A DNA stretch of 64,000 bases from Sedimentisphaerales bacterium. Its GTDB lineage: Bacteria; Planctomycetota; Phycisphaerae; Sedimentisphaerales; SM23-30. Of the stretch, positions 15,082-48,711 are shown piece after piece; the stretch's first letter is position 1, and every line of letters begins with the position of its first letter. The notes beneath the pieces are model-generated. The model was not told the origin of the DNA and searched no databases. It was given only the letters and a program-made list of their open reading frames with translations. Where the stretch lies: assembly GCA_963666285.1 (NCBI GenBank), contig OY762711.1, one strand, 5' to 3'. The translations under genes were made by a program, and so were the position numbers.

Positions 15082-15800
15082 GTCGAGTAGGCATGTCGCC
15101 TCCTTTCATTAATTTAACAAATTCTGAGTTTCATTATATTTTGTGCAAGGAAACGCATGCCCCTCACAGAACCGGACTTGAAGATTTCCCTCATCCGGCT
15201 CTTCATTAATGCTCACTTTGACGGCTACATAAGGCAAAGTAATGTGCCTTGTAGAAGTCTCCGATAGAAGACGCTGTGGAACGTTCATGGTTTCTTCCAG
15301 TTCAGTGCCTGGCCAATATCCTGTTTCGCCTTTACACATTAATGCTGACCCCTTCGAGTGCCTCAAACTTCGAAACTCAACAGGCATTACCCTGTTTACT
15401 CCTCTACTATGAGTCAGTCCGACTACCAAAATGCCATACGGCCGCGTCACGGTTTCAGCTCCTTGGCCGCTTCCTTTCGGAGCACTTCGGTTCTCCCAAG
15501 TTCCAATGCAGTCAGTTCGTTTGCCCGCTACGGACTCAGACCCCGGCTCGTCGATATATGCTCGCCGTATTTCGCATATATCGATATTGGCTTCAGGCAT
15601 ATGAAAACCCTGGCCCGGATGCGATAAGGAATAATTTCGGGGCTCAACACCTTCACTTGCGTTGTGGCTGACAAACTCCTTTCCCGGGGCTTCGTACAGT
15701 TCGTTACCTCTCTGCACGCCCGGTGCTGTAATGGGCGGGTGGCTAGCCCTTACCCATGCCGGATTGGCCGGCTTGACTACATTAGCTTCGCTTGGCGCTC
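15082..15800 (-). mobile_element. ORF-less group II intron, copy 1 (in non-coding DNA)
   Basis: The 5' end is GAGCGCC. Domain V is GAGCCGGAUGAGGGAAAUCUUCAAGUCCGGUUC (15201..15169). The domain VI helix GAGGGGCAUG/CAUGCCU-A-CUC has a bulged A 7 nt from the 3' end, and the 3' end is ...CGAC. It is absent from the paralogous site at 19776/19777. It differs from copy 2 by 2 substitutions. Confidence 0.8.
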
Positions 15801-16064
15801 TCATACCTCATCCTTCAGGTGCCGTTTCACGGCACCTGTCTGGTCTGCCCACAAATTACCAATCTCAATTTCCAGGTTAACAAACGCCTTTTAATCTTTA
15901 TTTCATACCCCCTTCCGCGCCCTCTCCGCGCTCGTTCTCAGCCCGCCGTAAGCCTCCGCGCGGCCTCCGTTGCCCGCAATTGCCCGGCGTTTAACGCCGT
16001 AAAATCGACTTTGGTACCACCAAACCCAAAATCAGCCAAAATATTTCAACTTCTTGCACACAAT
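15801..16064 (-). repeat. repeat copy A, proximal part (inverted partner of 19516-19779)
   Basis: About 264 bp are nearly identical (~4 mismatches) to the reverse complement of 19516-19779. It contains the hairpin CAGGTGCCG-TGAAA-CGGCACCTG and a GC-rich core. Confidence 0.9.
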
Positions 16065-20699: not shown

Positions 20700-22247
20700 C
20701 TATTTAATCTCTTCCATTTTTTCGATCTTGAAAAATGACTGTGTTACTTTATAGGCATCAAGCGGGTTGCCATCTATGACAGTAGAAGTAATATAAGCAG
20801 GACATTGGCTCTGGTGCGGCCTGGTAGCATCGATTGTATACCAATTATCATTTATCCATACCTGGGTCCAGGCATGGCCGTAAAAGGCATTCTTAACCGT
20901 AGCAAACTCGTCGACATAGAAATAACCAATCGCTACCCTGGCCGGTATCCCTGCAGACAGGCACATTCCCGCAGTTAAAACCGCATGCTCGGTGCAGTCA
21001 CCAGATTTGTTTTTAGCTATATCGAGAGCAGAAGCCCAACCTGTGCTGAGATTTTTATTGTTAATATATCCATGCACAAAGGCTTCGATTTTTTTAGCTG
21101 CTTTCCACGCATCTCTTTCATCTCCTACAGCTTCCAAGGAAAGTTTCCTGATGGCCGGATCATTATATTTGAGCCAGATATTATTAGGATTGAAACATTT
21201 TTCGGCCTGCAGATATTTATGCAAGGATGCATGAGTGTTATCATTAGATTTTTTAAATGCAAGTGATGGATCAATTTCAAAAATATCTGTCGGCAGCTGC
21301 TGACTGACCGGCGGCTGATAGGGCCTGACCTCAATGGTACATTCGTCATTTAATTGTTTGGCAATTACCTGATGATCGTCCTGATAGAAATCAACATCAG
21401 CTTTAGCAAATTTCAAATGGTAACGCATAGCTTTGGCCCTGGTCGGGTCTGGTGAATCAGCAGGGGCTTTGATCGAAACATCGGCGAGGATCTCAGCGAC
21501 ACCTTCATTGGCAAGAGCTTCTTCCATTTCGGCGACGATAAACTGGAACTTCAACCCCATCATTTCGATCGAAGATATCACATCATTACCATCTTCATCA
21601 ATATAGGAGACAGTCTCGATAGCTGTTCCTTTGAGGGTAAGAATAGTAGTACATTTGTACAGCGATTCATCGTAACCGGGCAGGTTAGTCTTATCACCGA
21701 TCACAACCTTGTAATCGACTTCCGACATATCGCCAGGCGAAAAAGCTGTGCCGGTAACGGTAACACCCGGAACAATACCATCCTTCATTGCTTCCTGCAT
21801 GAGCAGTTCTGCTGGCTGGACCTTGTCAGATATTTCCATCTCAAACTTGTTAGTACTGCCACTGATAGCCTGAAGAATATCATACTTGCCCTGCAGGTTG
21901 AGACTGCCATCAACCTTAACTACCGCCGGACCAAACTCCATAGATGAATTGAAACCGCTGAGTTTATATTTAGAAGCCTGGCTGTCCCATTTGAACTCGG
22001 TAGCTTCGGATACTGCTGCGGTAATCTTTGCACCGGCCCGACCGATATTGAGTTTGACGAATTCGCGAGACTTGACAAACTCCGGTGAAGTTTCGCTTAC
22101 GTGATGAATATAGCCGGCTTTCTGGTCGTTGAGCATAACCTTAAACCATTGATCGGCAGTTTCTTCCGGCAGCTGTTCAACAGCAGCAACCGCAGTTGCA
22201 AACATAACCAATATTAGAGATGATAATAATTTTTGTCGAGTAGGCAT
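20700..22247 (-). CDS. secreted transglutaminase-like cysteine protease-fold protein. Coordinates use the intron-internal ATG; the spliced form would be join(22957..22954,22234..20700).
   Basis: The Cys-His-Asp transglutaminase core is present (SGDCTEHAVLTAGMC...GHAWTQVW...IDAT). The N-terminal signal peptide is either MPTRQKLLSSLILVMFATAVAAV (unspliced) or MKKLLSSLILVMFATAVAAV (spliced). Confidence 0.8.
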   Translation of the reverse strand: MPTRQKLLSSLILVMFATAVAAVEQLPEETADQWFKVMLNDQKAGYIHHVSETSPEFVKSREFVKLNIGRAGAKITAAVSEATEFKWDSQASKYKLSGFNSSMEFGPAVVKVDGSLNLQGKYDILQAISGSTNKFEMEISDKVQPAELLMQEAMKDGIVPGVTVTGTAFSPGDMSEVDYKVVIGDKTNLPGYDESLYKCTTILTLKGTAIETVSYIDEDGNDVISSIEMMGLKFQFIVAEMEEALANEGVAEILADVSIKAPADSPDPTRAKAMRYHLKFAKADVDFYQDDHQVIAKQLNDECTIEVRPYQPPVSQQLPTDIFEIDPSLAFKKSNDNTHASLHKYLQAEKCFNPNNIWLKYNDPAIRKLSLEAVGDERDAWKAAKKIEAFVHGYINNKNLSTGWASALDIAKNKSGDCTEHAVLTAGMCLSAGIPARVAIGYFYVDEFATVKNAFYGHAWTQVWINDNWYTIDATRPHQSQCPAYITSTVIDGNPLDAYKVTQSFFKIEKMEEIK

Positions 22248-22953
22248 GTCGCCTCCTTTCATTAATTTAACAAATTCTGAGTTTCATTATATTTTGTGCA
22301 AGGAAACGCATGCCCCTCACTGAACCGGACTTGAAGATTTCCCTCATCCGGCTCTTCATTAATGCTCACTTTGACGGCTACATAAGGCAAAGTAATGTGC
22401 CTTGTAGAAGTCTCCGATAGAAGACGCTGTGGAACGTTCATGGTTTCTTCCAGTTCAGTGCCTGGCCAATATCCTGTTTCGCCTTTACACATTAATGCTG
22501 ACCCCTTCGAGTGCCTCAAACTTCGAAACTCAACAGGCATTACCCTGTTTACTCCTCTACTATGAGTCAGTCCGACTACCAAAATGCCATACGGCCGCGT
22601 CACGGTTTCAGCTCCTTGGCCGCTTCCTTTCGGAGCACTTCGGTTCTCCCAAGTTCCAATGCAGTCAGTTCGTTTGCCCGCTACGGACTCAGACCCCGGC
22701 TCGTCGATAGATGCTCGCCGTATTTCGCATATATCGATATTGGCTTCAGGCATATGAAAACCCTGGCCCGGATGCGATAAGGAATAATTTCGGGGCTCAA
22801 CACCTTCACTTGCGTTGTGGCTGACAAACTCCTTTCCCGGGGCTTCGTACAGTTCGTTACCTCTCTGCACGCCCGGTGCTGTAATGGGCGGGTGGCTAGC
22901 CCTTACCCATGCCGGATTGGCCGGCTTGACTACATTAGCTTCGCTTGGCGCTC
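22235..22953 (-). mobile_element. ORF-less group II intron, copy 2 (inside codon 2 of the transglutaminase-like gene)
   Basis: The same 719-nt element as 15082-15800, with domain V at 22354..22322. Both copies share the 5' exon flank TATGA and the first 3' exon base A. Confidence 0.8.
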
Positions 22954-23057
22954 TCATAATGATATACCTTTGGCTGTATTAGTAAACTTTTGCCGTTTTT
23001 AAGTTGCAAAAACAGCGAAAGTTAACGTGTATATTTCAGAGAGCAATACAGCATTTG

Positions 23058-27632: not shown

Positions 27633-28065
27633 CACAAAACAAAAGAAAATTAAAGAATTTTTTCTATTCTAACGACAATCTTGCCGGGCTTCAATATATT
27701 GAATAAACCCATAAGTAAAAGCACAATATATAGAATGGGGCATTGTGGGGAATTTTTAACACTTATCAGACTTTTAGAAAATTATCGGTCTGTTTTATGT
27801 TAATTATTAACAACCTGATTTTCTATAAATCCTGAAATTGGGGCTTTTAATACTGTTAACTGGTTTTATACTATTACTTTACCAGCTTTTCCACAAGTTT
27901 TCCACAGATGTAATTTTTTATTAACAGTCTGGGCAGTCCCAGAGCACCACTCCGCCACACCACCGCCCCACAAGCTAAGAAAAAAGACAAAGCCCAATTG
28001 TAGTCCGCCAACCAAGTTGGCCAACTTCGCCAAAAGATGGCCAACACCATCCGCGCGTACATTAA

Positions 28066-28155
28066 CCGCAAAAAGTTGATTTCAGACTTTTTTGCGGTCT
28101 TTTCAAATTTCTCTCAATTTTCTTATTAAAATCTCAAAAATAAAAGATTTTGAGA
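28066..28155 (-). terminator. two stem-loops downstream of the last gene of the prophage minus-strand arm
   Basis: The stem UCUCAAAA/UUUUGAGA (28132-28155) is followed by UUUUAAU on the minus strand. A second stem, CCGCAAAAA/UUUUUGCGG (28066-28097), could terminate in both directions. Confidence 0.6.
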
Positions 28156-28164
28156 AATATCCAA

Positions 28165-30252
28165 TTATTTCACTGACAGCCTAACATCTCTGGTCATAAC
28201 TTGCAGCTGCTGGGTGTCGCCCTGGAAAGTTACCTTAGCAACTTCCGGGTACTTGGTAGTACCATCAGAATCAACTCCCAACTCAAAAGTTCTGCCAGTT
28301 ATTCGCTCAAGAAGATCACCAGGCTTTATCATGACGCCGCCACTGTCCCACCACAGGAAGTCCAGGACGAACCGGCCAGAGGTGGCCTTGTCCTGATTCG
28401 CCTTACGGATCTGCGAGATGTGGCTATCCAGAGCTGTCTGCAAATTAAGATCGTCTGATGGGTAGCTATCACTGTAGACACTAATTTGTCGAAGCTGAAA
28501 AGGATACCTGTCTGATAAGTCATATACAGATTGATGTTTAAAAAGACTTCCTCCACCATTAGCTGATGGATTACTGATAAGGCGTTGATCCATCTCAACT
28601 GTACAGGTGATCCTACATCTAGTGTGCCAGCCCGCAGTCCAGTCTATTCCTATCAGCTTATCTCTACATAATGACGTCCAATAGTTAAGAGCTATGCCGT
28701 CAAGAGTTCCGCCTGAAATAGTGTCATTGTCAGAAATATAGATATCTGACAGATTTGGCTGTGTGATTAAGATGCCAAGTTCATCCGGCAATGCTTCGAC
28801 GAGTCCATCTAGTTTATGCCAGGTAGCGCCGCCATCAAAAGAGAATTCTAGTTTAACTGGAAGCCTATTACCTTTTGTTGAAAACTCGTTAACATAGCTT
28901 AAACATTGCTTTAAACGCCTAGTAAATGGAGCATAATTCGGCTGTCCGCTAGAGGTAACATAGCTACTACCGATCACAGTAGAAAAATCAAACACATCTC
29001 CACGATTGGCAGCACCTGAATATTTGCCAGATTCGTTCAGGGCCCAACGTCTACCAACAAATGGCCTAAATCTGTCTCCTCTTGAATGATACAGCTGGTA
29101 GAACGTATAAGCATTTGGATCAGTCGCTTGCTTAAGTTCCTTTTCAGTAAAAAATAAATTGCTAATATCCGGAACCAGGTTACTATCTAGCCAGCCTGGC
29201 ACCAACTCTAGTGTAACCTCAAATTTATGTACGCCGCCAAGACCAACCGGCTGGTTGATCACGGGTGTAATATCTTCTGTCATTTCCATTGCGGCTAGAA
29301 TCTTATCGCCACGAGTGATAGCATCAAGGATTGACTCAGAAGCATTAGCCGCATAAAACTCGTGTGAAGTTGAATGCGTACAGGAACTGCCTCTTTTGAA
29401 GAATACTAATTTGTCCCCTCCGGTTGTTTGATCCCAGTCAATTCTGAATGACCAGCCGAGTTGCCTACATATCGTGTCTATTGCTTCCAGCATGTTCATA
29501 CCATCGACGCTAACAGAAGCAAGCTCGGTATCAAAGTCAGAGTGATCTAATCCCATATCAGCAAATGAAGCTGTTAATAAATAAGGAAAATACGAATATG
29601 AGAGGCTAGAACTCTTCAGAATATAATCTATCATCCTGCGTGCAGTCCAATACTCCGCCTGAGACTCAATTGCTGTAAATACCGGCATATGGATGTAATT
29701 ACTATTGTATGTAAATATTTGTGCCGTGTTGACATCTTTATTCGGCCTGCCGCCATCATTAAAAATACACCGCCTCCCAAGTAACCAGGCTGCAGGTGTC
29801 GGTGTAGTTGTTACGGTAGCTAAAGGTACTGTTTTCATATCATTTTGATACGCAGAAGCAAGCCTGGCGTATTGTCCAAAGACAACTTGCGAAACTGCCA
29901 TCAGCCAGCGAATGTCCTGAATATCAGTTGAGAGATGCTGTTTGCAAGAATCCTGGTTGCCGCTGAAACCTCTATCCATCTTAGCAGAGATGCCGGAGAA
30001 TAGAATCGTATTACCAGCTTTGACTCTCACCTTATCACACCTTCCTACAGGTGAGATATGCCAGTCTATCGCCGGAAAGCTTATAACGGCTCTTGACGGC
30101 ATTATACCCATATCATAGACAATAGAGTCTACCTTGCAGCCTGCGATAGGTGTCCACTCTCCCCAGGTAACAGGGCTGCCGGCAACAGCGGTTGCAACCT
30201 CAACTGTCAATGTTGTTGCTATGCGTTCTAAATTATAGCGTTGTGTTGTCAT
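28165..30252 (-). CDS. large virion structural protein (tail/host-interaction candidate)
   Basis: The ORF is 695 aa from ATG 30252, 8 nt after the previous stop; the track's upstream start overlaps. It is the last gene of the structural arm. No motif was recognised. Confidence 0.5.
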   Translation of the reverse strand: MTTQRYNLERIATTLTVEVATAVAGSPVTWGEWTPIAGCKVDSIVYDMGIMPSRAVISFPAIDWHISPVGRCDKVRVKAGNTILFSGISAKMDRGFSGNQDSCKQHLSTDIQDIRWLMAVSQVVFGQYARLASAYQNDMKTVPLATVTTTPTPAAWLLGRRCIFNDGGRPNKDVNTAQIFTYNSNYIHMPVFTAIESQAEYWTARRMIDYILKSSSLSYSYFPYLLTASFADMGLDHSDFDTELASVSVDGMNMLEAIDTICRQLGWSFRIDWDQTTGGDKLVFFKRGSSCTHSTSHEFYAANASESILDAITRGDKILAAMEMTEDITPVINQPVGLGGVHKFEVTLELVPGWLDSNLVPDISNLFFTEKELKQATDPNAYTFYQLYHSRGDRFRPFVGRRWALNESGKYSGAANRGDVFDFSTVIGSSYVTSSGQPNYAPFTRRLKQCLSYVNEFSTKGNRLPVKLEFSFDGGATWHKLDGLVEALPDELGILITQPNLSDIYISDNDTISGGTLDGIALNYWTSLCRDKLIGIDWTAGWHTRCRITCTVEMDQRLISNPSANGGGSLFKHQSVYDLSDRYPFQLRQISVYSDSYPSDDLNLQTALDSHISQIRKANQDKATSGRFVLDFLWWDSGGVMIKPGDLLERITGRTFELGVDSDGTTKYPEVAKVTFQGDTQQLQVMTRDVRLSVK

Positions 30253-30260
30253 AATTAAAT

Positions 30261-33200
30261 CTAAACCGTATTGGATATTATTGTGGCAGAAGACCACGTG
30301 CCAGGATAATTGCCTATGTCACTCCAATATCTAACCCTATAACTAATAGATTGAGTTTCATCTTTAAATGTTGCCGACGCATATGAGGCTGAGGGTAAGC
30401 TTACTACCGATGTTCCGGCAGAGTCTGTAATTTCCAGCTCATATGTTAGCGAATCTTGATACCACGGCACCTTAAATGTAAGCATATCCTGAAAATTAAT
30501 ACTGTCCGATGTAATCCTGGCAGCGGTTGCTATCACCGCCTGGTGCGGGAAAAACATCGTCTCTTCAGATAACGCCAGGTTGTCGGAATTAACCACATCG
30601 CTGTAATTATCCGGATATGCTCCACCCGAAACAGAACCGTAATTATCATGCGCCACGCAGGTCATATATATCGCAGAATAATCATGGAACGCTTCTACCT
30701 GCCATAGCGTCTGGCTGCCGTCCAGGGACTTATCATAAAGATAAGTCTCATCATCTTCATCCATCGCCGTTAGCCAGGCAGACAGACCGGTCACACCGGT
30801 TTCATCGACAACCGTTTCCAAAGTAAAATCATACAGGGTCCCATGTCCGGCCTCATCCTGGACCAGAGTTACCCAGGCCCTGATTCTCCAATCAGGTTCA
30901 TAATTCTCATCCTCATAGTCACTATGTCCCATTCCTGCATATACAAGATTAGCATCACACAGCTCAGGACCTCTCACAAATTTAAGATCAGGGACAGGCG
31001 GTTCTGAATCTATTAGGTCTCCAAAAACTAAATCACATCTCTCATATAATCTTTTAAAAGAGCAATTGTTATATAAAGACCAGTCCACCTCGGCATATAA
31101 AGGCTGATTGACAACTTCTAGCTCCATATGCCATATACAAACAGGGACATCATCAATCCCGTTAACTCCTGACTGAGGACCTAACTGATTAGGATTCCCC
31201 CAGGGAGGAAGGAATTCAATTACATTACAAGTCTCTCCACTTATCTCAACTGTCCCTGTTATATTTGAAGCTTGCAAAGGAACTGATACATATTCTGTAG
31301 GTCTTTCTATAATTCCATTTGTTCCACCTTCAAGGTGTTCATATAAATATTCAGTTCCATAACTTGAACCATCTCTGAAGAGAAAAACAGGGTCATGTGC
31401 CTGCTGTTCAAAGTTACTATATATCCCTGTCCCAGTATCATAGTCTGAAGTTACTGAGATTAGTCCGGCGTTATTAGCAGTTAGAGCCAGTAAAACATAA
31501 GTTGTATAACCAGCCTCAAAGGGACTAATCCCTAATACATCTTGGTAAGTGTTGACATCAACAACCATACCTGCTCTCTCTATACAGACTCCTCCTTTCC
31601 AGTAACCACTATAACTATCAATGTAAGCTTTCCATCCTTGCCCTACTCCCTCTATCGATCCGGTGGTTATCCAGTCTTCCATACCATCAGGATAATTTGT
31701 CGCATACCAGCTCTGTTGATTAGCAAACATAATTGCTAGAGCCTCTTCTTTTGTTGCAGAGGTTGGTATGCTCGTCCACACCCAGCTATAGGCATCTCCG
31801 AAACTGCTCTTATCAAGACTAGCCTGAATGCTGCGAATTAATTTATGATAAGTAAATTCGCATTGGGCGCAAGTTAACAGGTTAAGAATTTCTCTGCAAT
31901 GATTCAGGATCCTGTAAACTCTATCGTAATATGCAGGAGTCGCGAAGTCTCCAAAGTGCCGTTCATTTATCTGTGTATCACAATATAGCGTGCCGGTCGG
32001 CACTGCATCAAGTAAAACAAAAGTTTTCCCAGCCGTAGAATCATATCTCCTAGTCTTGACGGTATAGACCGTTGTAACCGCATCGATTGCATGATCTGAA
32101 CCTGTGAAGCTCCATATCTTATAGCCCGGTCTGGGTGTTGCCTGCTCGCCACTGAACGATATCAAAGCCCCGCTTTCAACGGTATAAGAGGGCAACGCCG
32201 TTCCAAAATCTGTAATCGCCGGTATACTCATTGCCTCCGCCGATGTATCCTGTTGTGGTGCGTTTGATCTCGATGTGTCTAAAATACTCCTGCCCGGCAT
32301 GCGAACATCGCGACTATTAGAATCGAACCAGTAAGTTTGCATTCCGCAAGGATCTGCACTGCTTCCATCTATTCTGATATCTTCATAATGTCCCAAGGTA
32401 TATTTCCATGTTCTCCGCCAGGTGCCTTCAACAACAGGATAGCATGCTTCCGCAAAATCTGTCCAATTATCTAAACCTGTTACACTATTACAACTAGATG
32501 ACTCATTATATGTCCCTGTGTCCTGTTTTATCTCCCAGCGTTCATCCATAATCTGCTTCCAGGTCCATTTAGTATCTGACTTATCGAATACCCAATCATA
32601 GTAGTCAGAGCCTAATTTTTTTAATAGCAATTCAATTGCAGATTCATTCTCTCCCCAAAAAACATCATCAAGAGCAGCCCACTGTTTTTGAGAAGGATTC
32701 AGTTTAGGGAGCCATGCTTTTGAAGTTCCTCCCCAATCTAAAATATCCCCATAGGTAGTGTAGGAACTAGGCATAGAATACTTGGATTCCAGATACCCTC
32801 TGTGAGCAACTGGAGCAGTTGTGTTCTCATGATACCAAAGCCAGTTGTCTATATAGTCTTCATCAGGCTTCATAACCCAGGTCCTGCCTGAGAAACCTGA
32901 AGAAAAATCATAACCAGAAACACCATCAAAACTCATAGTTGTTACTTGTTTCTGGGCTATGAGTTCAATCATATTTTGAACAGCTCCGTTAAACTTTCCT
33001 TGGCTCCATTTGTCCTCCCATTTTGATGTATAGTGTTGAGATGGAAACCAGCCAGCCTCTCCGTGATATCCCATGGAGCCTATCTCAACTTGATGTATTT
33101 CTTGATACTGTTTAGACCAGCTTGCTCCATGGTGGTCTGAATCACCTGTCCCAGTTGAATAGCCTGTCTCCATACAACTATCATAAGGACCTAGTGAATC

Positions 33201-34385
33201 AGGGTCTGTAATCTGTAGCGGGTCTATTTGAACCTTACTCTTATATTTCCACTTAGACCCCAAATCTCCTAAATAAAACTTAGGTTCAATGATCTCTTTT
33301 GGGTCAGTTGGGAATGGGAGGTAATCAGAAACAGGAAAGACTGCTGTATAAAAATCATACTCCCCCAGTGTCCTGCTCCCGGCAAAATCTCCATAGGTCA
33401 TAAACCTATGAGAGTTAGTATCAAAACAATGATATACAGAAGCATTAAACCCTCTCACCCAGTCCCCATTATAATCAACTGCTAATATTCCTCCTGTTGG
33501 AGGTCTTCCATCATTAGGACCTCTTAGAACATCAGGACCATCAAGAGGATACCTGTGATACATATCTTTGTTGCTCCACCATCTTCCTGTCCTGTATGAG
33601 TCATATCCTAAATCAGAAATATTAGCCAAGTCAGCATGTAAATCTCCATTAGTTCCATTATACGCACTTCCTGATGAACCGTGGTTACCCCTGAATATCC
33701 ACCAGTCTCCCCCAAAGTCACATATAGCATCAACTTCTGAGAATCCTGAACATGATGTTAATTGAACACTGTTTCCCTCTAAATCAGTTGGAGTTATATA
33801 TAAATAACTTCCTGAGACCCTTAATGAACCAACTCTGTAAAAACCATTGTTGACTTGTTCCCAATTAGAAGAAGTTGAATTAATTTTAAATGGAGTCCCT
33901 ATTCTGAAATCATCTTGAACAGCATACCATTGCTCTGTTCCTGATGTAGGAGAAATAGTTGAACCTGTTTGAGTGAATAACCCATAAGAGCTTATTTGGG
34001 AACCTAATGAAAATTTAAATTCTCCCAAGGGATTAGTAGAAGTATCTACTTCTAATACTTCATAACTGAAATTATATTCATACCAGCATGAAATTGAGCC
34101 AGGTTTAATACTCGCCCAATCAATATTATGAAGCTTATCAGTTGTGTCATAAACAATATCAGAAGTTGGATAAGGAAGAAGCATATCTTCCCAATTATTT
34201 AAATAATTCTGGGAAGTTATATAAGGATTTCCTGAAAAAGAGCTATGAATGGCTGGCTTGCCAAAGCCAATAGAAGCAAGATAAATAAACCTTCTTATGT
34301 CTTCGTGATTCAGATGATGGATTACATCACCAGGCACGATTGGCCATTGACCTAATTTCCAGATTGCTTCAGATTGATTAGACAT
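30261..34385 (-). CDS. giant (1374-aa) virion structural protein, function unknown
   Basis: The ORF is uninterrupted and its start directly abuts the upstream stop. It is rich in W/Y/G/S/T, as in fibre or adhesin proteins. No catalytic motif was recognised. Confidence 0.55.
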   Translation of the reverse strand: MSNQSEAIWKLGQWPIVPGDVIHHLNHEDIRRFIYLASIGFGKPAIHSSFSGNPYITSQNYLNNWEDMLLPYPTSDIVYDTTDKLHNIDWASIKPGSISCWYEYNFSYEVLEVDTSTNPLGEFKFSLGSQISSYGLFTQTGSTISPTSGTEQWYAVQDDFRIGTPFKINSTSSNWEQVNNGFYRVGSLRVSGSYLYITPTDLEGNSVQLTSCSGFSEVDAICDFGGDWWIFRGNHGSSGSAYNGTNGDLHADLANISDLGYDSYRTGRWWSNKDMYHRYPLDGPDVLRGPNDGRPPTGGILAVDYNGDWVRGFNASVYHCFDTNSHRFMTYGDFAGSRTLGEYDFYTAVFPVSDYLPFPTDPKEIIEPKFYLGDLGSKWKYKSKVQIDPLQITDPDSLGPYDSCMETGYSTGTGDSDHHGASWSKQYQEIHQVEIGSMGYHGEAGWFPSQHYTSKWEDKWSQGKFNGAVQNMIELIAQKQVTTMSFDGVSGYDFSSGFSGRTWVMKPDEDYIDNWLWYHENTTAPVAHRGYLESKYSMPSSYTTYGDILDWGGTSKAWLPKLNPSQKQWAALDDVFWGENESAIELLLKKLGSDYYDWVFDKSDTKWTWKQIMDERWEIKQDTGTYNESSSCNSVTGLDNWTDFAEACYPVVEGTWRRTWKYTLGHYEDIRIDGSSADPCGMQTYWFDSNSRDVRMPGRSILDTSRSNAPQQDTSAEAMSIPAITDFGTALPSYTVESGALISFSGEQATPRPGYKIWSFTGSDHAIDAVTTVYTVKTRRYDSTAGKTFVLLDAVPTGTLYCDTQINERHFGDFATPAYYDRVYRILNHCREILNLLTCAQCEFTYHKLIRSIQASLDKSSFGDAYSWVWTSIPTSATKEEALAIMFANQQSWYATNYPDGMEDWITTGSIEGVGQGWKAYIDSYSGYWKGGVCIERAGMVVDVNTYQDVLGISPFEAGYTTYVLLALTANNAGLISVTSDYDTGTGIYSNFEQQAHDPVFLFRDGSSYGTEYLYEHLEGGTNGIIERPTEYVSVPLQASNITGTVEISGETCNVIEFLPPWGNPNQLGPQSGVNGIDDVPVCIWHMELEVVNQPLYAEVDWSLYNNCSFKRLYERCDLVFGDLIDSEPPVPDLKFVRGPELCDANLVYAGMGHSDYEDENYEPDWRIRAWVTLVQDEAGHGTLYDFTLETVVDETGVTGLSAWLTAMDEDDETYLYDKSLDGSQTLWQVEAFHDYSAIYMTCVAHDNYGSVSGGAYPDNYSDVVNSDNLALSEETMFFPHQAVIATAARITSDSINFQDMLTFKVPWYQDSLTYELEITDSAGTSVVSLPSASYASATFKDETQSISYRVRYWSDIGNYPGTWSSATIISNTV

Positions 34386-34865
34386 CTATACCCACACCGC
34401 CACTATATGACCTGTTTCGCTGTTATGCCTGAACGATGATGTACTTTCTCCGCCGACATATTTTAACGGCTCATCCAGATACCATATCGTATCAGCTTCA
34501 GCCGCATCCCATCTTGATACTATTCTGACAATTGATCCAACTTTAAACCAGGGCAGCCAATTTCTGATATCGGTTGCATTAGCGTCATACCCCTCGTATC
34601 CCAATGCTCGGTCGATAGTAATATTAGTTCCATCACCAACCCAGGCACCGGAAGTATTAACCGACGCCTTCTGCACGGTATAATGATCGGCGGTCGCCGA
34701 ATCGTATTCCGGGATCTCGGTTACAATTGCCCATTGGAGAGAAGCCGCCCCTCCGCCTTCAGGACGCACCGCCTGCTCCGCCTGGATCATGATCGCTCCG
34801 TCCGGAGTGCCTGTTCGTTCCAGCGATGCTTTACGTGCTATATTGTCTCGTAGTAATTGACTCAT
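34386..34865 (-). CDS. hypothetical phage structural protein
   Basis: A 159-aa ORF with a 4-nt overlap with the upstream gene, in the structural arm. Confidence 0.5.
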   Translation of the reverse strand: MSQLLRDNIARKASLERTGTPDGAIMIQAEQAVRPEGGGAASLQWAIVTEIPEYDSATADHYTVQKASVNTSGAWVGDGTNITIDRALGYEGYDANATDIRNWLPWFKVGSIVRIVSRWDAAEADTIWYLDEPLKYVGGESTSSFRHNSETGHIVAVWV

Positions 34866-35473
34866 TCGCTCTTCAATACTCCGTTAATCTTATCTTGGAT
34901 CAGAGCTGTAACATCATCAACCTTTTCGAGTGCTGCATCTATCAAGGCTCCGCTGCCGTGAATCGTAACACTCTTGGCAAAAGCAAACAACAATCTAAAC
35001 TTACCTCGTTTCCCATTCCTTCGTCCAAATAATAACTGCCCGCCGCTACGAACAAAAAAACCATCTTCCACCTGGCGAGGTGAGGTAAAGCGAGGTACTC
35101 CGCTCGGCGTAAAATTTTCGCCTGCTGGAATTGCCAGGTATTTACTTTTTTTAGGTGTGATAGTGACAGTCTCATCGCCAAGCAGCCATTTATATTGATC
35201 AACATTACTGCCGTCAGGTATTCCGATTGACACACTGTTAGCATTCTGCTGCCAGCTCATCACAGCTGCCGACAGCATACCTGTCCGCCGTTTGAGATAT
35301 TGACCGCTTAGATATTCAGTTACCAGGTGACCGGCGATCATCTGGCCGCCTTCGGCCAGGCCTTCGCTAGCAGCATCAAAAATAGACCTGCCTCGCCCGA
35401 TCATATCCTGCTCGAACGTCCGCCAGCCACTACCAAGTTCTATCATCAACTGCATCGAAAACCTTAAATACAA
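34862..35473 (-). CDS. neck/tail-completion protein candidate (HK97 gp10 / virion-morphogenesis-like)
   Basis: It lies after the head-tail connector. The ...VSIGIP...ITPKKSKYLAIP... pattern recalls gp10-like proteins; this is weak similarity from memory. Confidence 0.35.
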   Translation of the reverse strand: MYLRFSMQLMIELGSGWRTFEQDMIGRGRSIFDAASEGLAEGGQMIAGHLVTEYLSGQYLKRRTGMLSAAVMSWQQNANSVSIGIPDGSNVDQYKWLLGDETVTITPKKSKYLAIPAGENFTPSGVPRFTSPRQVEDGFFVRSGGQLLFGRRNGKRGKFRLLFAFAKSVTIHGSGALIDAALEKVDDVTALIQDKINGVLKSE

Positions 35474-36063
35474 AAACCTGCGGGGTTCCTAAATAATTCC
35501 AACACTTTCAACACTTCCGGCAAAAACGGCTTCAGCGTATGCAGCTGACTATCGCCACCGTCAAAGCTCTCGCCTTTACTACCGGGATTATTCCGCCTGG
35601 TCAGCTCACAGATGCATTGCTTGATCGCCGCACCACGCAGCGACTCCGGCACCACCTTCTCTCCATCGCCAGGCGTATCACCAGCCGCCGTATACCCGCC
35701 GCGATAGATCACCTGTACGCTATCAGCCTGTTTCGGCCAGTCACAATCAAGTCGCTGTAAAACGCCGTTTAACCCGGCTTTAACAATACGATAATCCGAA
35801 TTTGCCGTAAGGGCAGCAGCACTATCGAAATCATAGGCACAGGACTCCTTAACGCTAACAACAGACACTATCGGCCAGGCATTCACGTGCAGCACATTCC
35901 CCGGCCCCTGGTGATACTCCGTATAATCGCCAACAATAAATTTACGCTGACAATATTCCTCGAACTGTGCCGTCACGCTCTTGGCAATTTCCAGTAGCAC
36001 AGCATCATCGCCGCTGCCGGTTTCGCCCATAATTGTTTTAATTTGTGCTACAGTACAAAGCAT
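35464..36063 (-). CDS. head-tail connector (gp6-like / DNA-packaging QLRG-type) protein
   Basis: The N-terminus MLCTVAQIKTIMGETGSGDDAVLLEIAKSVTAQFEEYCQRKF is typical of gp6-like connector proteins. Confidence 0.55.
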   Translation of the reverse strand: MLCTVAQIKTIMGETGSGDDAVLLEIAKSVTAQFEEYCQRKFIVGDYTEYHQGPGNVLHVNAWPIVSVVSVKESCAYDFDSAAALTANSDYRIVKAGLNGVLQRLDCDWPKQADSVQVIYRGGYTAAGDTPGDGEKVVPESLRGAAIKQCICELTRRNNPGSKGESFDGGDSQLHTLKPFLPEVLKVLELFRNPAGFCI

Positions 36064-36071
36064 ATCTTCAC

Positions 36072-38225
36072 CTATGGATAAACTGTCTTGACATTAGATT
36101 TATTAAGCTCTGTATTCCCATAATGTGTCACTGAATCCGGATACAAACTTTCTATGTCGTTTGCCGTTAAGCTACCAACGTATAACTGAGGGTCTGCAAT
36201 ATACACTTCGACGTCTTCATTGTCGTACGAACTATTGGAATCAGGGTAGAAGAATATGTCGTCATCTGTTGGGCTGGCTGCACAAAATCCTGTTGCGATA
36301 AATGGAATCCACTGCCCTTTCTTTAGAGCGTAGTAATCACTTCGCTGTGTACGTGATTCGTTGCCTGGTATAAACTGAAGGTGGAAATATGGCGATAGCA
36401 TATCTGGATTAGTATTGGTATCTTCACCTATATAAACCATATAGACAACCGTTACCACTTGTCCTGCATACTCGGCCACTTGTCCTGCTGTTAACTTAAG
36501 CTGGAACCCTGAAGGAAGTATGCCAGATACGCCTGCTTTCTTGCAAGAATTGTATCTTATAGCCTCAGTATATTTATCTTCAGGTATTCCCGAAGTAACT
36601 ATATTCCAGATGGCATAACCATCTAATGTGAAAGTAATATCTTTCCCATCAACAGATATTGTTTCACCCTTTTGGAAAACTCCAGAAAGGGCATCGATAC
36701 GGAATCTACCAACCAAATCACCTCCTGCAAGAGAACCGCTTACAGTCGTGACAGTACCATCGAGAGTCAATGTTGCTCCTGAAGTCTGTCCGGTCATAGT
36801 GTCATTATCTGCAAAGCTATCCGTTCCAGAACCACTAGTAAATGTCATCGTCTGTTCAGAATTATACCCGGAAGTTACAATTTGATCTGCAATCGCGGTA
36901 GCAGTTATTATATTCCGCTTATGTGGGTAATGCCCGCAAATATGACTTGTGATATTGACCCAAACATCACCAGTCTCATCTATGCAACGATCCCCATAAG
37001 GGGGTCGGAGCATGGCAATACATTCTCCATTCCATTCGATGAACGGAGAATATAATGTGTGACTACTGTTGTCCGAATAACGAACGACATCAGTACCTAC
37101 CCGCAAGGCTAAATTGATTTCATCTGTTGCCGGGTCAACGGCATATATCTCAAATACACCATCATTATCCTCTAACCAAGCAGAAGTTCCTGAATAACTG
37201 GCAGTGGACACATAAATTAACCCATTACCGCCAAGAGCAGGGTCAGAATAATGCCCATAAAAACCTGTATTCTTAATATTCTCATCCTTTAGTAGAGTTA
37301 TTGTTCCACCCGGCGAATCAGCAGTATCGCCCATATCAAGCTTATATATCTTCTGAGAATCTCCTCCGCCAAGTAATTGATAAGGTGGAGAATCACTCAT
37401 AAAATAAGCTACAGAGCCATTAGTTGGCAGGTCAACGATTCTCCAATCCTGAGCATTACCGGCAACTATATAATCGGAAATAACTTTGTCACTGGTCCAT
37501 GCGCTTCTTGCTCCTGAACCCAAGGCCCATCGAGTGAACCATGTTGAAGGGGAATCAATCAGACTAGGTATGTCTGCCTCTGCACAGAACAGAATAGAAC
37601 TGGCCTCATCAGTATCACCGGTGTACACATACAGACCTTTGCCCTCAACGTAGGTAGCTCCATGTACATGCGTAACAGCAGCAAGATCAACGCCGAATAG
37701 ATCATCCCAATTACCATTATCACCACAAGCAGCATCGGTCGCAACTGAACTAACGTAAACCCTGTCATGGAAAGCTCCGCCTACATCACCGGGGACAGAA
37801 CGAGCGAAATACAATAGAATCCTACGCTCCGCAGAACCACCTGCACCACCAGTTGTATCTAGGGTTACTGTATGTCTACCTAGATCGACTAAAGACCTGC
37901 CAAGAGAGTTTTTAGCGTCTGGGATGTCCGCAAGTTTCGTAAACGCAGTAGTGCCGTCAGGAGATTTCATAAGACATGAATTGTCTGATGTGTCACCATA
38001 GTTAATGAATAAACCTACTCCGTTAATACCCCATGCTCTGGCTATGTAGTTGTTAGCAACCAGACTTCCACACAAAGTGCCTGTGCCTTCATAGTCTATC
38101 ATCACCAGAGAATTGTTGGAATCTCCTGCATCCCATTTTTCGCCGCAAACTATTGAATCGCCAAACCTGCACCAGGGAGCGTAAATTTTAGAAGCTACAG
38201 TGTCATTAAATGTCCATTGTTTCAT
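36072..38225 (-). CDS. 717-aa structural protein of unknown function, between capsid accessories and connector
   Basis: The ORF is uninterrupted and Gly/Asp/Thr-rich, with a repetitive strand-like pattern that could fit a beta-propeller or fibre. Confidence 0.5.
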   Translation of the reverse strand: MKQWTFNDTVASKIYAPWCRFGDSIVCGEKWDAGDSNNSLVMIDYEGTGTLCGSLVANNYIARAWGINGVGLFINYGDTSDNSCLMKSPDGTTAFTKLADIPDAKNSLGRSLVDLGRHTVTLDTTGGAGGSAERRILLYFARSVPGDVGGAFHDRVYVSSVATDAACGDNGNWDDLFGVDLAAVTHVHGATYVEGKGLYVYTGDTDEASSILFCAEADIPSLIDSPSTWFTRWALGSGARSAWTSDKVISDYIVAGNAQDWRIVDLPTNGSVAYFMSDSPPYQLLGGGDSQKIYKLDMGDTADSPGGTITLLKDENIKNTGFYGHYSDPALGGNGLIYVSTASYSGTSAWLEDNDGVFEIYAVDPATDEINLALRVGTDVVRYSDNSSHTLYSPFIEWNGECIAMLRPPYGDRCIDETGDVWVNITSHICGHYPHKRNIITATAIADQIVTSGYNSEQTMTFTSGSGTDSFADNDTMTGQTSGATLTLDGTVTTVSGSLAGGDLVGRFRIDALSGVFQKGETISVDGKDITFTLDGYAIWNIVTSGIPEDKYTEAIRYNSCKKAGVSGILPSGFQLKLTAGQVAEYAGQVVTVVYMVYIGEDTNTNPDMLSPYFHLQFIPGNESRTQRSDYYALKKGQWIPFIATGFCAASPTDDDIFFYPDSNSSYDNEDVEVYIADPQLYVGSLTANDIESLYPDSVTHYGNTELNKSNVKTVYP

Positions 38226-38226
38226 C

Positions 38227-38616
38227 TTAATACCCCTTCACAACAGTTATTGTTTTAGCACCAGATACTACTTCAACAGAAAGATATCGATTCGTTATTG
38301 TCACAGAGCCACTAGCAGTATTAGCTTCGACCAGCAGCCAAACATCATTGTCTGCCGTTGGAATCTGAACACCTGCCGTCCCTGCCTCTATTGACTCAAT
38401 AGCAGTTTGTATATCTGCCAAACTAGCACCTTCTAACCTTAAAACATTATTTTGAATCAGTCCTTTTGTGCTTTCAGTAGTAATAACTGTACAATAACTA
38501 TCAGTCATCTCCGCAACGTAAACATCGTCAATATGATAGAACTCTCCCTCATTATAAACTCTACCATCGCTTGTCTTGTAAGTTCGCTTCATATATACAA
38601 ATTTAAACATGAGCAC
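38227..38616 (-). CDS. hypothetical phage protein
   Basis: A 129-aa ORF abutting its neighbours. Confidence 0.45.
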   Translation of the reverse strand: MLMFKFVYMKRTYKTSDGRVYNEGEFYHIDDVYVAEMTDSYCTVITTESTKGLIQNNVLRLEGASLADIQTAIESIEAGTAGVQIPTADNDVWLLVEANTASGSVTITNRYLSVEVVSGAKTITVVKGY

Positions 38617-38994
38617 CTACGCTTTCTTTTCCGGTTCGACAGTGTGATACGTACCTGGAGCAAGTTTTTCAGCATTATAGCAATGCTGCCACTTGCCCTT
38701 GCCGTTCTGGTATGCATAGCCAACCTGACCTCGCTTAGTAACTAGCCGCTGGATTTCCTTCAGCTTAGCTTCTGGTAGCGGATCCAGTTTACCATCACCA
38801 CTATTATTTTTAGGCTCAGCTTTTTTGTTTTTATCGCTGCGTTCCTTCAGCGGTTTGCCCGCTACGTCAAGTACTCTATAGCTGTTTTTTGGTAGCTGCT
38901 TGACCATAGATTGACCAAGCTCATAGGTCATATTACGATAATATTGGCCCATGATACCTGCCAGCCTTACTGTTCGTTTCATTTGAATTTTCAT
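38617..38994 (-). CDS. hypothetical basic phage protein
   Basis: A 125-aa Lys-rich ORF abutting its neighbours. Confidence 0.45.
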   Translation of the reverse strand: MKIQMKRTVRLAGIMGQYYRNMTYELGQSMVKQLPKNSYRVLDVAGKPLKERSDKNKKAEPKNNSGDGKLDPLPEAKLKEIQRLVTKRGQVGYAYQNGKGKWQHCYNAEKLAPGTYHTVEPEKKA

Positions 38995-39077
38995 TTTATT
39001 ATCCTCAAAGTTGCGGAGCTCTCCAAAGAGAGCCCCGCCTCAGAAATAACATTTGGCCTATCGCCGTTGTTTTTACT

Positions 39078-39533
39078 TTACGCCTTGACCAGCTCTTCCA
39101 GGCCCATAGCCGCTGCAGTTTCTTCAAGCACACCTTCGCCCTTTGATAGGACGGCATAGGCACACATATTTGCACCTGTTGCGCCGTCACCGGCTGTTGG
39201 CGCATTGAATCTTACGTAACGCTTACCGGCATGACGCATATTCAGATGGATCGCAAACAGCTTATTATCTTCGGTAGCTGCAATCGCATCAGCCAGAGCG
39301 GCACCATCGATATCAGTGTATACACCATCGACTGTATCACATTCTTCCAGCTTCAGAGCTGCAGACGCCGTCGTCGAGCCGATAGTAGTATCAAGAGCTC
39401 CTACACCAAAAACAAACAAACCTTCACGAAAACCAGCGGTATCAGCCGCACCATTATTAGCAAAGGCACCATTATCTTTAAGTTGAGGTGGCACCAGACT
39501 AACTACTTTTATTTTTCCAAGTAAATCGTGCAT
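39078..39533 (-). CDS. capsid-associated protein candidate (decoration/cement?)
   Basis: A 151-aa Ala/Gly-rich ORF immediately downstream of the major capsid gene. Confidence 0.4.
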   Translation of the reverse strand: MHDLLGKIKVVSLVPPQLKDNGAFANNGAADTAGFREGLFVFGVGALDTTIGSTTASAALKLEECDTVDGVYTDIDGAALADAIAATEDNKLFAIHLNMRHAGKRYVRFNAPTAGDGATGANMCAYAVLSKGEGVLEETAAAMGLEELVKA

Positions 39534-39634
39534 TTTTTATATCTCCGTTAAAAGAGTTTTAATCATATATTAAAGAGTGTTTTCTCCCTGCCGGGATAGT
39601 TTCAAAACAATCACCAAATTTAAGCCGCTGTCAA

Positions 39635-41002
39635 CTATCCAATATCGCCCAGCAGACCGACATAAGCACCGGCAGCTAACGTATCAGTATCTTCGATAGA
39701 CTTCTGACCATGAATCGTAATAGTTGACCTTTGAGTCCCAAGCAGAGTTACCTGGCCAATAGTAAACTTAACATGATCACTGCGAGCAATACCACGTTTA
39801 CGCAGCTCGCCAAGTTTGGCAGCCTGTTTCAAATCGCCCAGGATAACCGGTATATGATCAGCTGCAGGCTTAACCTTTGGCATAACATGAGTCGTCTGCA
39901 CTGGATAACCATGGAACATCTTCTGGCGGCCACGCAGGCCTTCTATCATTTCTGTCAGAGTTGTGCCGCCCATATTAGAGGCAATATTCAACATCACACT
40001 ATAATAGAAATTACGATGACAGAAATACTTGGTATCGCCAGTATCAGCAAAGTCAGGCAAACGACCTTCAATACCAAGAAAATCTTTTTCAACCATCGCA
40101 GTCCAGTCACCAGCAGTCTTCTGGATCTGAATACCAGGATTATCAGAAGGGCTTTCTGTAACTCCCAGCAGCGACGGGATCAAACCCATAATATTGAAAT
40201 AGCTCAAGGTGCCATCACCCATAAAACCGATCTGATCTTCTTTCTTCGCAAACGCCCTGGCAAACTGCTGCATAATAATTGGAGCCAGTGCAATTGCTGA
40301 ATCTTCCATCAGATCTTTACCAACAAACATCAGCGACATCCAGGTCAAAGCCTGCAGCCCTATACTGGCAGCCTTCAAATCAGCATCAGCCGGCTCAATG
40401 CCAAGAGCCGGACAATACACCGGCAGATCGCCCATCAGCGACGGTGCAGACCCTTCCGGAGAACTCATCGGCCAGACAGTCGTATTAGCACGAAACGCAC
40501 CGTAACTTTCCTGTAAGGCGATCAGTGTATTTATAAACTGGTCCGGCACAAAATATCCGCCGGTAATATTATCGCCGCCATCCATAGCCTTAAGCTCAAC
40601 ACCACGACTATCAAGAGTTTTGATAATACTATCTCTTCTTGACATCTGACCCATAGCTTCCTTGGCAATTGCCAGGACAGACAAACCAAATGCTTCAGCA
40701 GCATCAGTTGAGCCAAACATCTTACAAGAACTGACAAGATGACTTGAACTGCTCATCAGATGTTTAATCTGCTTACGCATAACACCGAGAGCCTCTTCAG
40801 CTTCTTTAACCTGCATTTCGGTTTCGGTCAGTTTCTTATTAAGTTCATTCTCACTATCAGCCATCAGCTCCTGCAGGAACTTTTCAGAAAACTCCTTCAG
40901 GCCATCCTGCATTTCATTTTTGGTAACATGGCCTTTAGAATACTGTTCCATAATCAGTTCAATTTTTTCTTCAATATCTAATTCATCAAACTTCTTTGAC
41001 AT
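39635..41002 (-). CDS. major capsid protein, HK97 fold, with N-terminal coiled-coil (delta/scaffold-like) region
   Basis: GGYFVPDQFINTLIALQESYGAFRANTTVWPMSS is typical of the HK97 MCP family. I prefer ATG 41002, preceded by AGGAG, over the track start 41056. Confidence 0.8.
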   Translation of the reverse strand: MSKKFDELDIEEKIELIMEQYSKGHVTKNEMQDGLKEFSEKFLQELMADSENELNKKLTETEMQVKEAEEALGVMRKQIKHLMSSSSHLVSSCKMFGSTDAAEAFGLSVLAIAKEAMGQMSRRDSIIKTLDSRGVELKAMDGGDNITGGYFVPDQFINTLIALQESYGAFRANTTVWPMSSPEGSAPSLMGDLPVYCPALGIEPADADLKAASIGLQALTWMSLMFVGKDLMEDSAIALAPIIMQQFARAFAKKEDQIGFMGDGTLSYFNIMGLIPSLLGVTESPSDNPGIQIQKTAGDWTAMVEKDFLGIEGRLPDFADTGDTKYFCHRNFYYSVMLNIASNMGGTTLTEMIEGLRGRQKMFHGYPVQTTHVMPKVKPAADHIPVILGDLKQAAKLGELRKRGIARSDHVKFTIGQVTLLGTQRSTITIHGQKSIEDTDTLAAGAYVGLLGDIG

Positions 41003-41042
41003 AATATAACTCCTGTTATTTAATTTACTATTCAAGCTGTTG

Positions 41043-44233: not shown

Positions 44234-44240
44234 CCTTGCA

Positions 44241-45569: not shown

Positions 45570-45599
45570 TAAGGTGTCAATCCTCTATTCACTTGTTAA

Positions 45600-46419: not shown

Positions 46420-46425
46420 GGGTGC

Positions 46426-46683: not shown

Positions 46684-46684
46684 C

Positions 46685-47038: not shown

Positions 47039-47040
47039 AC

Positions 47041-47100: not shown

Positions 47101-47178
47101 TTCTTGCCGTTCAAACAAAATTTGGCGGAGCAGCAACAAGCTACCCCGCCTCGAAAGGATCTTCAACAGAAAAAGATA

Positions 47179-48710: not shown

Positions 48711-48711
48711 A

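Follow-up and report, generated by a model that had tools for sequence, protein, structure and literature searches.

The window analysed here is a 64,000-nt stretch of contig OY762711.1 from a Sedimentisphaerales bacterium (assembly GCA_963666285.1). On its minus strand, at 22953..22235, lies a 719-nt group II intron that lacks an open reading frame (ORF) for an intron-encoded protein (IEP) and is inserted after the ATG-A of a gene for a transglutaminase-like protein. Such an insertion would separate the start codon of the host gene from the rest of its ORF, and the clade to which the intron belongs appears to supply a replacement start at the 3′ end of the intron: a Shine-Dalgarno (SD) tract and an AUG within domain VI (D6), in phase with the downstream exon. 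On balance, the comparisons described below lead us to think it somewhat more probable than not that this is a start-codon-homing intron with a replacement start site in D6, and that the host protein could be made without splicing.

The intron was identified with the Rfam covariance models. RF02005, which covers domains I to IV (D1–D4), matched at 22920..22684 with 112.2 bits (gathering threshold 49), and RF00029, which covers D5 and D6, matched at 22356..22235 with 52.3 bits (gathering threshold 40). The boundaries were refined from a second copy in the window, designated copy A, and from about 50 full-length relatives; the similarity between the gene copy and copy A (match ~15082..15804) ends at T-ATGA/GAGCG... 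on one side and ...CUCGAC/A on the other. In the predicted fold, A22241 is an unpaired, bulged candidate branch point located 7 nt from the end ...CUCGAC. The 5′ end GAGCG, a U2A change relative to the consensus GUGYG, is found in the window copies and in the related locus L145, while most relatives begin with GUGCG or GUGUG, and GAGUG or GAGCG also occurs in other lineages. As dispersed copies carry the GAGCG variant, it is probably compatible with mobility; a scan of viral contigs for this 5′ end gave no matches. Indirect signs of splicing and mobility are the two window copies with only two differences, the additional copies in the genome and the intact IEPs of the relatives. No reverse transcriptase (RT) is encoded in the 64-kb window, so any maturase acting on the two ORF-less introns would have to be encoded at another place in the genome.

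Related introns were collected by a protein search with the translated 231-codon frame that crosses the intron (252 database ORFs matched in the same frame, many of 195 or 131 aa), by a genome scan with a 23-mer from D3 (19 loci) and by a metagenome scan with a D5 pattern (120 loci), giving about 145 related loci overall. The hosts found with the D3 23-mer included Nitrospirae, Phycisphaerae, Sedimentisphaerales, Marinimicrobia, delta-proteobacteria, Spirochaetales, Cytophagia and others. The D5 pattern was rejected as a subclade-specific probe; it retrieved a broad superfamily, which was then used as a control set. One locus (L090) was left out of the counts, its 5′ region being composite and its boundary mis-assigned.

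The results showed that in 17 of 18 full-length introns of the ATG type exon 1 ends in ATGA (twice ATGG) after an SD-like motif, and that exon-binding site 1 (EBS1) is a loop containing UCAU. The SD-like motif of the relatives resembles AGGAG and lies 5–9 nt before the ATGA or ATGG. The EBS1 loop UCAU(A/U/G) is complementary to the (U/A/C)AUGA exons, and the loop nucleotides flanking UCAU covary across loci with the exon nucleotides upstream of AUGA. Sister clades use other pairs of EBS1 and intron-binding site 1 (IBS1), such as GCUUUG/CAAAGC and UCUCCA/UGGAGA. The covariation and the sister pairs together identify EBS1 and IBS1 and assign the ATG to the exon. Throughout the start-codon clade, the first base of exon 2 is A, and the start-codon pattern at the 5′ junction was found in none of the 32 listed introns of the ACG type and other sister lineages. 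When ATGA was joined to exon 2, the predicted phase stayed open over 30 or more codons at 23 of 27 sites (4 and 7 sites in the other two phases); in the control lineages, the exon-2 phase was open at roughly 15–35% of sites. The predicted spliced N-termini resemble signal peptides or twin-arginine translocation (TAT) peptides, for example MKNVLNRRDFLR... and MKKNIAVFILMFWGC.... A neighbour-joining tree of D1–D3 placed the ATG-type introns in one clade, and independent origins of the association of AUG and SD with start codons were rejected on this basis. By its sequence, the window intron is an ORF-less member of a widespread clade that homes to the first codon of genes, after AUG-A, as specified by the UCAU of EBS1.

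In the window, the SD tract AAAGGAGG is followed by CGAC and an ATG in frame with exon 2. All members of the start-codon clade end in ...AUG(C/U)CUACUCGAC; the AUG tops the basal helix of D6 and is separated by 13 nt from the 3′ splice site, hence in the same phase as the ATGA of exon 1, i.e., the phase of the host gene. An SD-like tract lies 4–7 nt upstream of this AUG in the clade, and both the AUG at −13 and the SD have been kept through three D6 architectures (67–80, 87 and ~122 nt). In contrast, sister lineages that share D5 and even the 122-nt D6 insert, and that home elsewhere (their exon 2 starts with C), have ACG and no SD. The ACG is compensated by CGU in place of CAU in the 5′ strand of D6, indicating that the difference between AUG and ACG is structurally neutral. 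The duplex between the SD tract and the anti-SD sequence had a median energy of −9.3 kcal/mol in the ATG type (22 of 31 at or below −7) compared to −2.1 kcal/mol in the ACG sisters (0 of 23; Mann–Whitney p = 3e-9). The value for the window D6, −11.6 kcal/mol, was stronger than that of all 21 regions upstream of long ORFs in the window. Most of these 21 regions have a weak SD or none, with energies from about +0.9 to −8 kcal/mol.

A minimum free energy (MFE) prediction placed both elements in an extended D6 stem (ΔG −29.6 kcal/mol, z = −5.3), in which the AUG, in the 3′ strand of the basal helix, pairs with CAU and the SD tract pairs with CGUUUCCUU (22306..22300). Across 12 relatives, 94% of the cells of the D6 stem are paired, and only one pair of the main SD/anti-SD stem has changed on both sides; it is located within the SD, its GGAGG/GGUGG variation being matched by U/A in the partner strand. 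The earlier note on this DNA, made from its letters alone, had pointed to an SD and AUG embedded in D6 in frame with exon 2 and to the position of the AUG in the 3′ strand of the helix; the former has been borne out by conservation across the clade and absence from the ACG sisters, and the latter agrees with the predicted fold. These comparisons indicate that the SD-AUG module is conserved, clade-specific and in phase, and that it is masked in the predicted fold of the ribozyme.

The second element is the reading frame that enters the intron from the host ATG. Between this ATG and the TAA (22262..22957, 231 codons) the frame contains no internal stop, whereas the two remaining sense frames have 15 and 20. 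It was open in none of 20,000 dinucleotide shuffles, and its composition-based probability is 5e-6; the shuffles imply that the open frame is no effect of composition. Among 50 full-length relatives, the frame is open over D1–D3 in 40, including members of clades that are not located at start codons. In an alignment of 30 introns (100–110 aligned codon columns), no column with a derived stop was found in this leader frame, whereas the control frames had 5 majority stops plus 21 and 23 derived-stop columns, about 3 per sequence. Within the ORF-less subclade (8 sequences, 77–92% identical), the leader frame had 0 stops compared to 23 and 26 variable stop columns in the controls, 10 each of which were in the part spanning D4–D6. 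In this subclade the frame extends across D5 and enters D6, with its stop invariably located between anti-SD and SD, and a frame kept open up to a stop just before the SD fits the idea of ribosome transit.

Avoidance of stops was not accompanied by signs of a conserved protein. The ratio of nonsynonymous to synonymous substitutions (dN/dS) was 0.65, compared to 1.04 and 0.78 in the shifted frames, the diversity at the three codon positions was 0.27/0.32/0.33, the same RNA segment is read in different local frames by different lineages, and the leader-frame protein has no Pfam or NCBIfam match. The results indicate that the leader frame is ancestral and, as far as these comparisons go, under selection against stops without constraint at the protein level. 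A real protein encoded by the 231-codon ORF was rejected on codon statistics.

In the IEP-containing relatives, the stop of the leader frame overlaps the RT start or lies within ~11 nt of it, and this holds in three lineages: the junction reads TAATG or TGATG in ACG lineages and ATGA in another lineage and in L085, and in the start-codon lineage the TGA lies 11 nt after the IEP ATG. The full-length relatives measure ~1930–1990 nt and have no 5′ insertion. Their IEP has 444 aa, matches the RT/maturase family TIGR04416 over residues 39–409 with nothing beyond, and its distances to the LtrA, E.r./R.i., GsI-IIC and TeI4h RTs are about the same. The simplest reading of the open frame is that it represents a translated leader ORF that is coupled to the IEP and that would have staying open as its sole constraint.

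The continuity of the frame from the host ATG turned out to be a feature of few introns. In 14 of the 15 other members of the start-codon clade, the host-ATG frame ends around codon 30 (at codon 30 in 13, at 28 in L019 and at 35 in L141). The stop of this first ORF (ORF1), UGA or UAA, immediately precedes a GGAGG, and after a further 9 nt an AUG or GUG at nt 103 opens the leader ORF (ORF2). Six ORF-less type-a relatives (L001, L010, L036, L045, L053 and L078), sampled without reference to ORFs, likewise have a host-ATG frame that ends at codon 30; their second frame comprises 192–211 codons from nt 58 or 97 and ends with TGA or TAA in apical D6, 14 nt before the D6 AUG. ORF1 and ORF2 are fused into one frame only in the window lineage and in L145 (P0002; 84% nucleotide identity; it also begins with GAGCG). 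Judging from these relatives, the 231-codon frame is a 30-codon ORF1 fused with a leader ORF2 of ~195 codons, and loss of the ORF1 stop was part of the fusion. ORFs of 195 aa starting at the host ATG, which the protein alignment had seemed to show, were rejected; the DNA shows that they start ~100 nt inside the intron, in another frame.

A similar distinction applies to the stop of the frame. In the window, its TAA (22264..22262) overlaps an ATG (22262..22260) in a TAATG, which opens a 520-codon ORF (MKGGDMPTRQKLL..., 20700..22262, minus strand). This TAATG occurs only in the window lineage; relatives read AAAUUGAAG or AAAUUAAAG there and have a TGA or TAA 14 nt before the D6 AUG without an overlapping ATG. 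The position of the stop 14 nt before an SD-preceded AUG, seen in the window next to the TAATG overlap, is the geometry found in the relatives as well. The description of the intron as translationally 'transparent' in the earlier note is therefore retained in part. The frame open from the host ATG is non-random as claimed, and the D6 SD-AUG and the comparative signs of ribosome transit point in the same direction; the continuous frame is found in the window and L145 and is interrupted at or near codon 30 elsewhere, and the TAATG restart, in frame with exon 2, has no counterpart in relatives. The open frame is under selection against stops, including the D4–D6 part in the ORF-less subclade, but by these comparisons it did not originate for the sake of the host protein: it is ancestral, tied to the IEP start in full-length relatives and present in 40 of 50 introns.

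Exon 2 encodes a transglutaminase-like domain (Pfam PF01841), and the predicted spliced product is a protein of 512 aa with the N-terminus MKKLLSSLILVMFATAVAAV... (MKKLLSS...). The two closest orthologs, P0128 and P0129 (62% identity), have 512 and 509 aa, begin with MHK... and start at the same distance from a conserved QLP motif as the spliced window protein; their lengths and N-termini fit the spliced form of the host protein. The genome annotation, however, starts the host protein at the D6 AUG (P0127, 515 aa, MPTRQ..., window 20700..22247). At L145 (908..1054), a gene caller likewise put the host start at the AUG inside D6, and in the start-codon clade the N-termini of host proteins are systematically annotated inside the intron while the intron itself is annotated as a hypothetical protein. 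Such starts in D6 imply that N-termini have been mis-annotated and introns overlooked.

Taken together, these observations suggest a relay of translation, of which the translated frames, the reinitiation and the host protein from unspliced RNA are what we infer from the sequences. Ribosomes would load at the SD and AUG of the host gene, translate ORF1 to its stop at codon 30 and reinitiate on ORF2; in the window they would read straight through. They would then unwind D5 and the 5′ (anti-SD) strand of D6 and terminate 14 nt before the SD-AUG, which would thereby be unmasked, and restart at the D6 AUG, with the TAATG of the window as an additional restart site. The product would be the host protein with MPTRQ- replacing MK-, i.e., with a few extra residues ahead of the signal peptide. 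If the RNA folded first, the SD and AUG would be base-paired in the anti-SD/SD helix and hence hidden, and splicing would yield the native MKK... protein. In full-length members, the leader ORF over D1–D3 would deliver ribosomes to the RT start, and the same relay would feed the IEP. More tentatively, and with somewhat less confidence than in the replacement start itself, the whole superfamily may be built for translation through: an unconstrained, stop-free leader ORF over D1–D3 would hand ribosomes to the RT; the start-codon clade would relay them from the host AUG through the 30-codon ORF and the leader ORF to the IEP and return a masked D6 SD-AUG to the host; and ORF-less copies would keep an unbroken relay, with a choice between folding and splicing or unfolding and translation that makes insertion nearly neutral.

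Several findings weigh against a replacement start that serves the host. The genome of the host mostly has weak SDs, the spacing between SD and AUG in the window is only 4 nt, and two ATG-type introns (L093 and L023) are nearly without an SD. Being a strand of a conserved helix, the SD tract may have a structural role only, and three relatives have GGUGG with a compensating partner. At nt 103, the position of the ORF2 start, L008 has ACG and L023 has AAG. The frame has been lost in 10 of 50 introns, 6 of them ORF-less, and over D1–D3 it is open outside the start-codon clades too, so most of it needs no host-related explanation. In IEP-containing start-codon introns, the IEP stop precedes D6 by ~50 nt and the D6 AUG by ~100 nt, without tight coupling to that AUG. 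The ATG clade has a single origin kept through 20–30% divergence, which represents one maintained origin and no repeated convergence. Copy A is not in a gene. Finally, ribosome transit would unfold the ribozyme and so compete with splicing.

Some of these points would be expected if splicing alone mattered, i.e., if the maturase acted in trans, the host protein (MKKLLSS...) came solely from spliced mRNA, the D6 purines and AUG were structural and the frame was inherited without a role in the ORF-less copy. The complete pairing of SD and AUG in the conserved helix, the covariation of GGAGG/GGUGG with its partner, the ancestry of the leader frame and its tie to the IEP start, the agreement of the orthologs with the spliced N-terminus and the single origin of the clade all fit this explanation, as do near-identical copies at different sites, which imply recent mobility and hence competence for splicing. 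It leaves unaccounted for, however, that SD and AUG are specific to the start-codon clade although sisters of the same architecture do with a compensated ACG and no SD, that the module survived three remodellings of D6, and that the frame of the ORF-less subclade, which has no IEP to feed, is stop-free through D4–D6 and ends just before the SD. We therefore regard splicing alone as an unlikely explanation, albeit the strongest of the competitors. The signals might instead serve the intron, with ribosome traffic or loading at D6 protecting the RNA from Rho or RNase or timing its folding and any expression of the host gene being incidental. Ribosome association has been reported to protect Ll.LtrB from RNase E (PMC3851717; discussed in PMC12584367), and the opening of the leader frame in clades away from start codons is in line with such a role. 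But this would explain neither the restriction of AUG and SD to the start-codon clade, nor the host phase of an AUG 13 nt from the splice site, nor the stop of the ORF-less frame just upstream of it, and it appears distinctly improbable.

That the 231-codon ORF is a functional protein overlapping the ribozyme is very improbable. The 252 same-frame database ORFs, many of 195 or 131 aa, and the strong avoidance of stops are what such a protein would produce, but the dN/dS value of 0.65 (0.78–1.04 in the shifted frames), the nearly equal diversity of the codon positions, the use of different local frames over the same RNA segment and the lack of Pfam or NCBIfam matches contradict it, and the sequence matches two Rfam ribozyme models. 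Chance, in the sense of a GC-balanced structured RNA that happens to be stop-free in one frame with the other features coincidental, deserved attention since the feature came from a scan that selects such coincidences and each match of phase has a probability of 1/3; it is effectively refuted by the shuffles and by the 0 derived-stop columns, compared to 21–26 in the controls, among independently sampled relatives, and the conservation of the SD-AUG throughout the clade also speaks against it. The replacement start site in D6 thus remains the explanation that we favour. The positions of the features are listed in Table 1.

Table 1. Positions of the intron, its signals and its exons in the window
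Feature	Position	Strand	Remarks
End of exon 1	22954..22971	−	Weak SD-like AAAGG, spacer, host ATG (22957..22955) and A (22954); ends ...TTATGA
IBS1	UAUGA at end of exon 1	−	Pairs with EBS1
Intron	22235..22953	−	5′ GAGCG, 3′ CUCGAC
231-codon open frame	22262..22957	−	From host ATG through D1–D5 into D6; apparent fusion of ORF1 and ORF2
CAG at the position of the relatives' ORF1 stop (UGA/UAA)	22865..22867	−	In relatives, the stop is followed by GGAGG-N9-AUG/GUG
EBS1 core UCAUA in a terminal loop of D1	22753..22757	−	Pairs with UAUGA of exon 1
D5, GAGCCGGAUGAGGGAAAUCUUCAAGUCCGGUUC, with the AGC triad inside	22322..22354	−	Rfam match and fold
Extended D6 stem-loop	22237..22319	−	Anti-SD 22306..22300; candidate branch-point A 22241
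TAATG, frame stop overlapping an ATG in host phase	22260..22264	−	Window lineage only
SD and AUG, AAAGGAGG-CGAC-AUG	22245..22259	−	SD 22259..22252, AUG 22247..22245; 13 nt from 3′ splice site, phase of exon-1 ATGA
Exon 2, secreted transglutaminase-like protein	20700..22234	−	Starts AAAAATT; PF01841
Intron copy A	15082..15800	−	2 of 723 compared positions differ from gene copy; intergenic

Copy A, also on the minus strand, is embedded in a series of AGGATGA-like repeats (GAAGGATGAGGTATGA/intron/AGGATGAAGGATGAAGGATGA), and a terminator-like hairpin (CAGGUGCCGUGAAACGGCACCUG) precedes it by 16 nt. Its spliced frame gives only MKDEG*, which, together with its intergenic position, indicates that AUGA-containing sites outside genes are also used. 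Further copies of the intron frame occur in this 6.15-Mb genome (P0001 cluster). One of them, P0123 (288 aa), continues an upstream ORF by read-through, and the tail of that ORF looks like an RHS/YD-repeat protein (...YYLHDHLNSPAALAE...EGRY/MRAPSE). A related assembly has a copy that a frameshift divides into parts of 118 and 113 aa (P0124 and P0125).

Some of the sister lineages showed insertion patterns of their own. Seven IEP-containing introns of the ACG type (L034, L067, L097, L123, L134, L139 and L144) occupy very similar sites (tGTGGwGACAAAAtGGAGA/CAtAAAGTCACCtgaaaatc), and another sublineage sits in ...ACAAAGC/CAATTT; these sites look like homing into a conserved repeat or gene. The 'GCUAUGGGCUCUACUCGAC' lineage (L027, L037, L048, L064, L068, L100, L105, L113, L118, L119 and others) starts with GCGCGCC, not GUGCG, and is inserted beside repeats of the CGCGGAT/CACGGAT type; L060, of this lineage, has two tandem copies ~700 nt apart. 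L090 has ~100 nt of a 5′ end of the ACG-lineage type and a target site before a second start (...GAAGGAGAATGACCATGA/GCAGCGCCAAG) and may be a nested or composite intron. Elsewhere in the window, a prophage-like block on the minus strand occupies ~39600..45600 and probably extends over ~28000..50000; it encodes a major capsid protein (PF05065), a prohead protease (PF04586), a portal protein plus a Mu F-like protein (PF04860/PF04233) and a large terminase (PF03237/PF17289).

Given the coupling of transcription and translation, the common view of bacterial group II introns is that they stay out of genes or depend on being spliced efficiently. The start-codon clade suggests a third strategy, in which insertion at a start codon is combined with a conditionally masked spare start, so that the host gene would be expressible from spliced or unspliced RNA. 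The clade also offers a direct route to studying how ribosomes and ribozyme folding compete.

Some group II introns are already known to have specialised on start or stop codons. The account in PMC12584367 (citing Michel et al. 2007) describes a proteobacterial IIB1 clade with a subdomain Ia of 300–700 nt at the base of domain I, whose members include Avi.groEL and EcKTE56.groEL, the latter a 3228-nt intron of the IIB1/CL1 lineage; in the groEL introns, insertion converts UAA to UAG and the unspliced RNA still encodes the full protein. Homing into a translation signal of the host is common to both groups, and the window clade would regenerate a start codon in an equivalent way. It differs from the IIB1 clade as described there in having no subdomain Ia (the 5′ part of the 719-nt window intron is collinear with RF02005 from nt 34), in the RT of its relatives, which looks different (444 aa, no match beyond TIGR04416), and in its hosts, here Planctomycetota, Nitrospirae, Marinimicrobia, delta-proteobacteria and others; the passages of PMC12584367 on the IIB1 clade mention no D6 SD-AUG. 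The literature searched contained no description of a D6 SD-AUG restart module, although Michel et al. 2007 and Simon et al. 2008 lay outside the search and may describe one, nor of a leader ORF coupled to a bacterial IEP. The novelty suggested in the earlier note, that of a group II intron with its own in-frame restart module, stands within this search; specialisation on start or stop codons is known from another lineage (PMC12584367).

In Clostridium tetani, the intron C.te.I1 has annotated start codons in D5/D6 that are not considered functional (PMC3919590). Like the window intron, it is a bacterial group II intron without an ORF, and its host gene encodes a secreted or cell-surface protein (PMC3919590), but the start codons were treated there as an annotation removed by splicing, expression proceeds via alternative splicing to an upstream ORF, and neither a conserved SD-AUG module nor homing to start codons was described. 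In IIC-attC introns, internal promoters directed outward serve the downstream cassette (PMC3001079), and in these mobile introns, too, intron-borne signals keep a downstream host gene expressed despite insertion (PMC3001079). Their signals are transcriptional and belong to IIC introns at attC, whereas the putative signals here are translational, an SD and AUG in D6 in host phase. Prokaryotic introns usually keep ribosomes out by an early stop (PMC3073962), as in phage group I introns, where an early in-frame stop just after the 5′ splice site blocks them (PMC3073962). The opposite is seen here, with no stop for 231 codons in the window and relatives that would pass ribosomes from ORF to ORF.

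A parallel to the open frame is found in organelles, where reading frames through D1–D3 use host translation signals, as in exon-fused ORFs and 'core creep' (PMC3073962, PMC8393795). In both cases a frame runs through ribozyme domains I–III and upstream signals of the host reach, or here would reach, the IEP. The organellar frames yield a single fusion protein that is processed, whereas the introns described here have a separate, unconstrained leader ORF with an overlapping stop and start to the IEP, and the ORF-less window copy has no IEP at all. A stop-free leader frame joined to the RT by ATGA or TAATG would thus be a bacterial counterpart of the organellar exon-fused intron ORFs.

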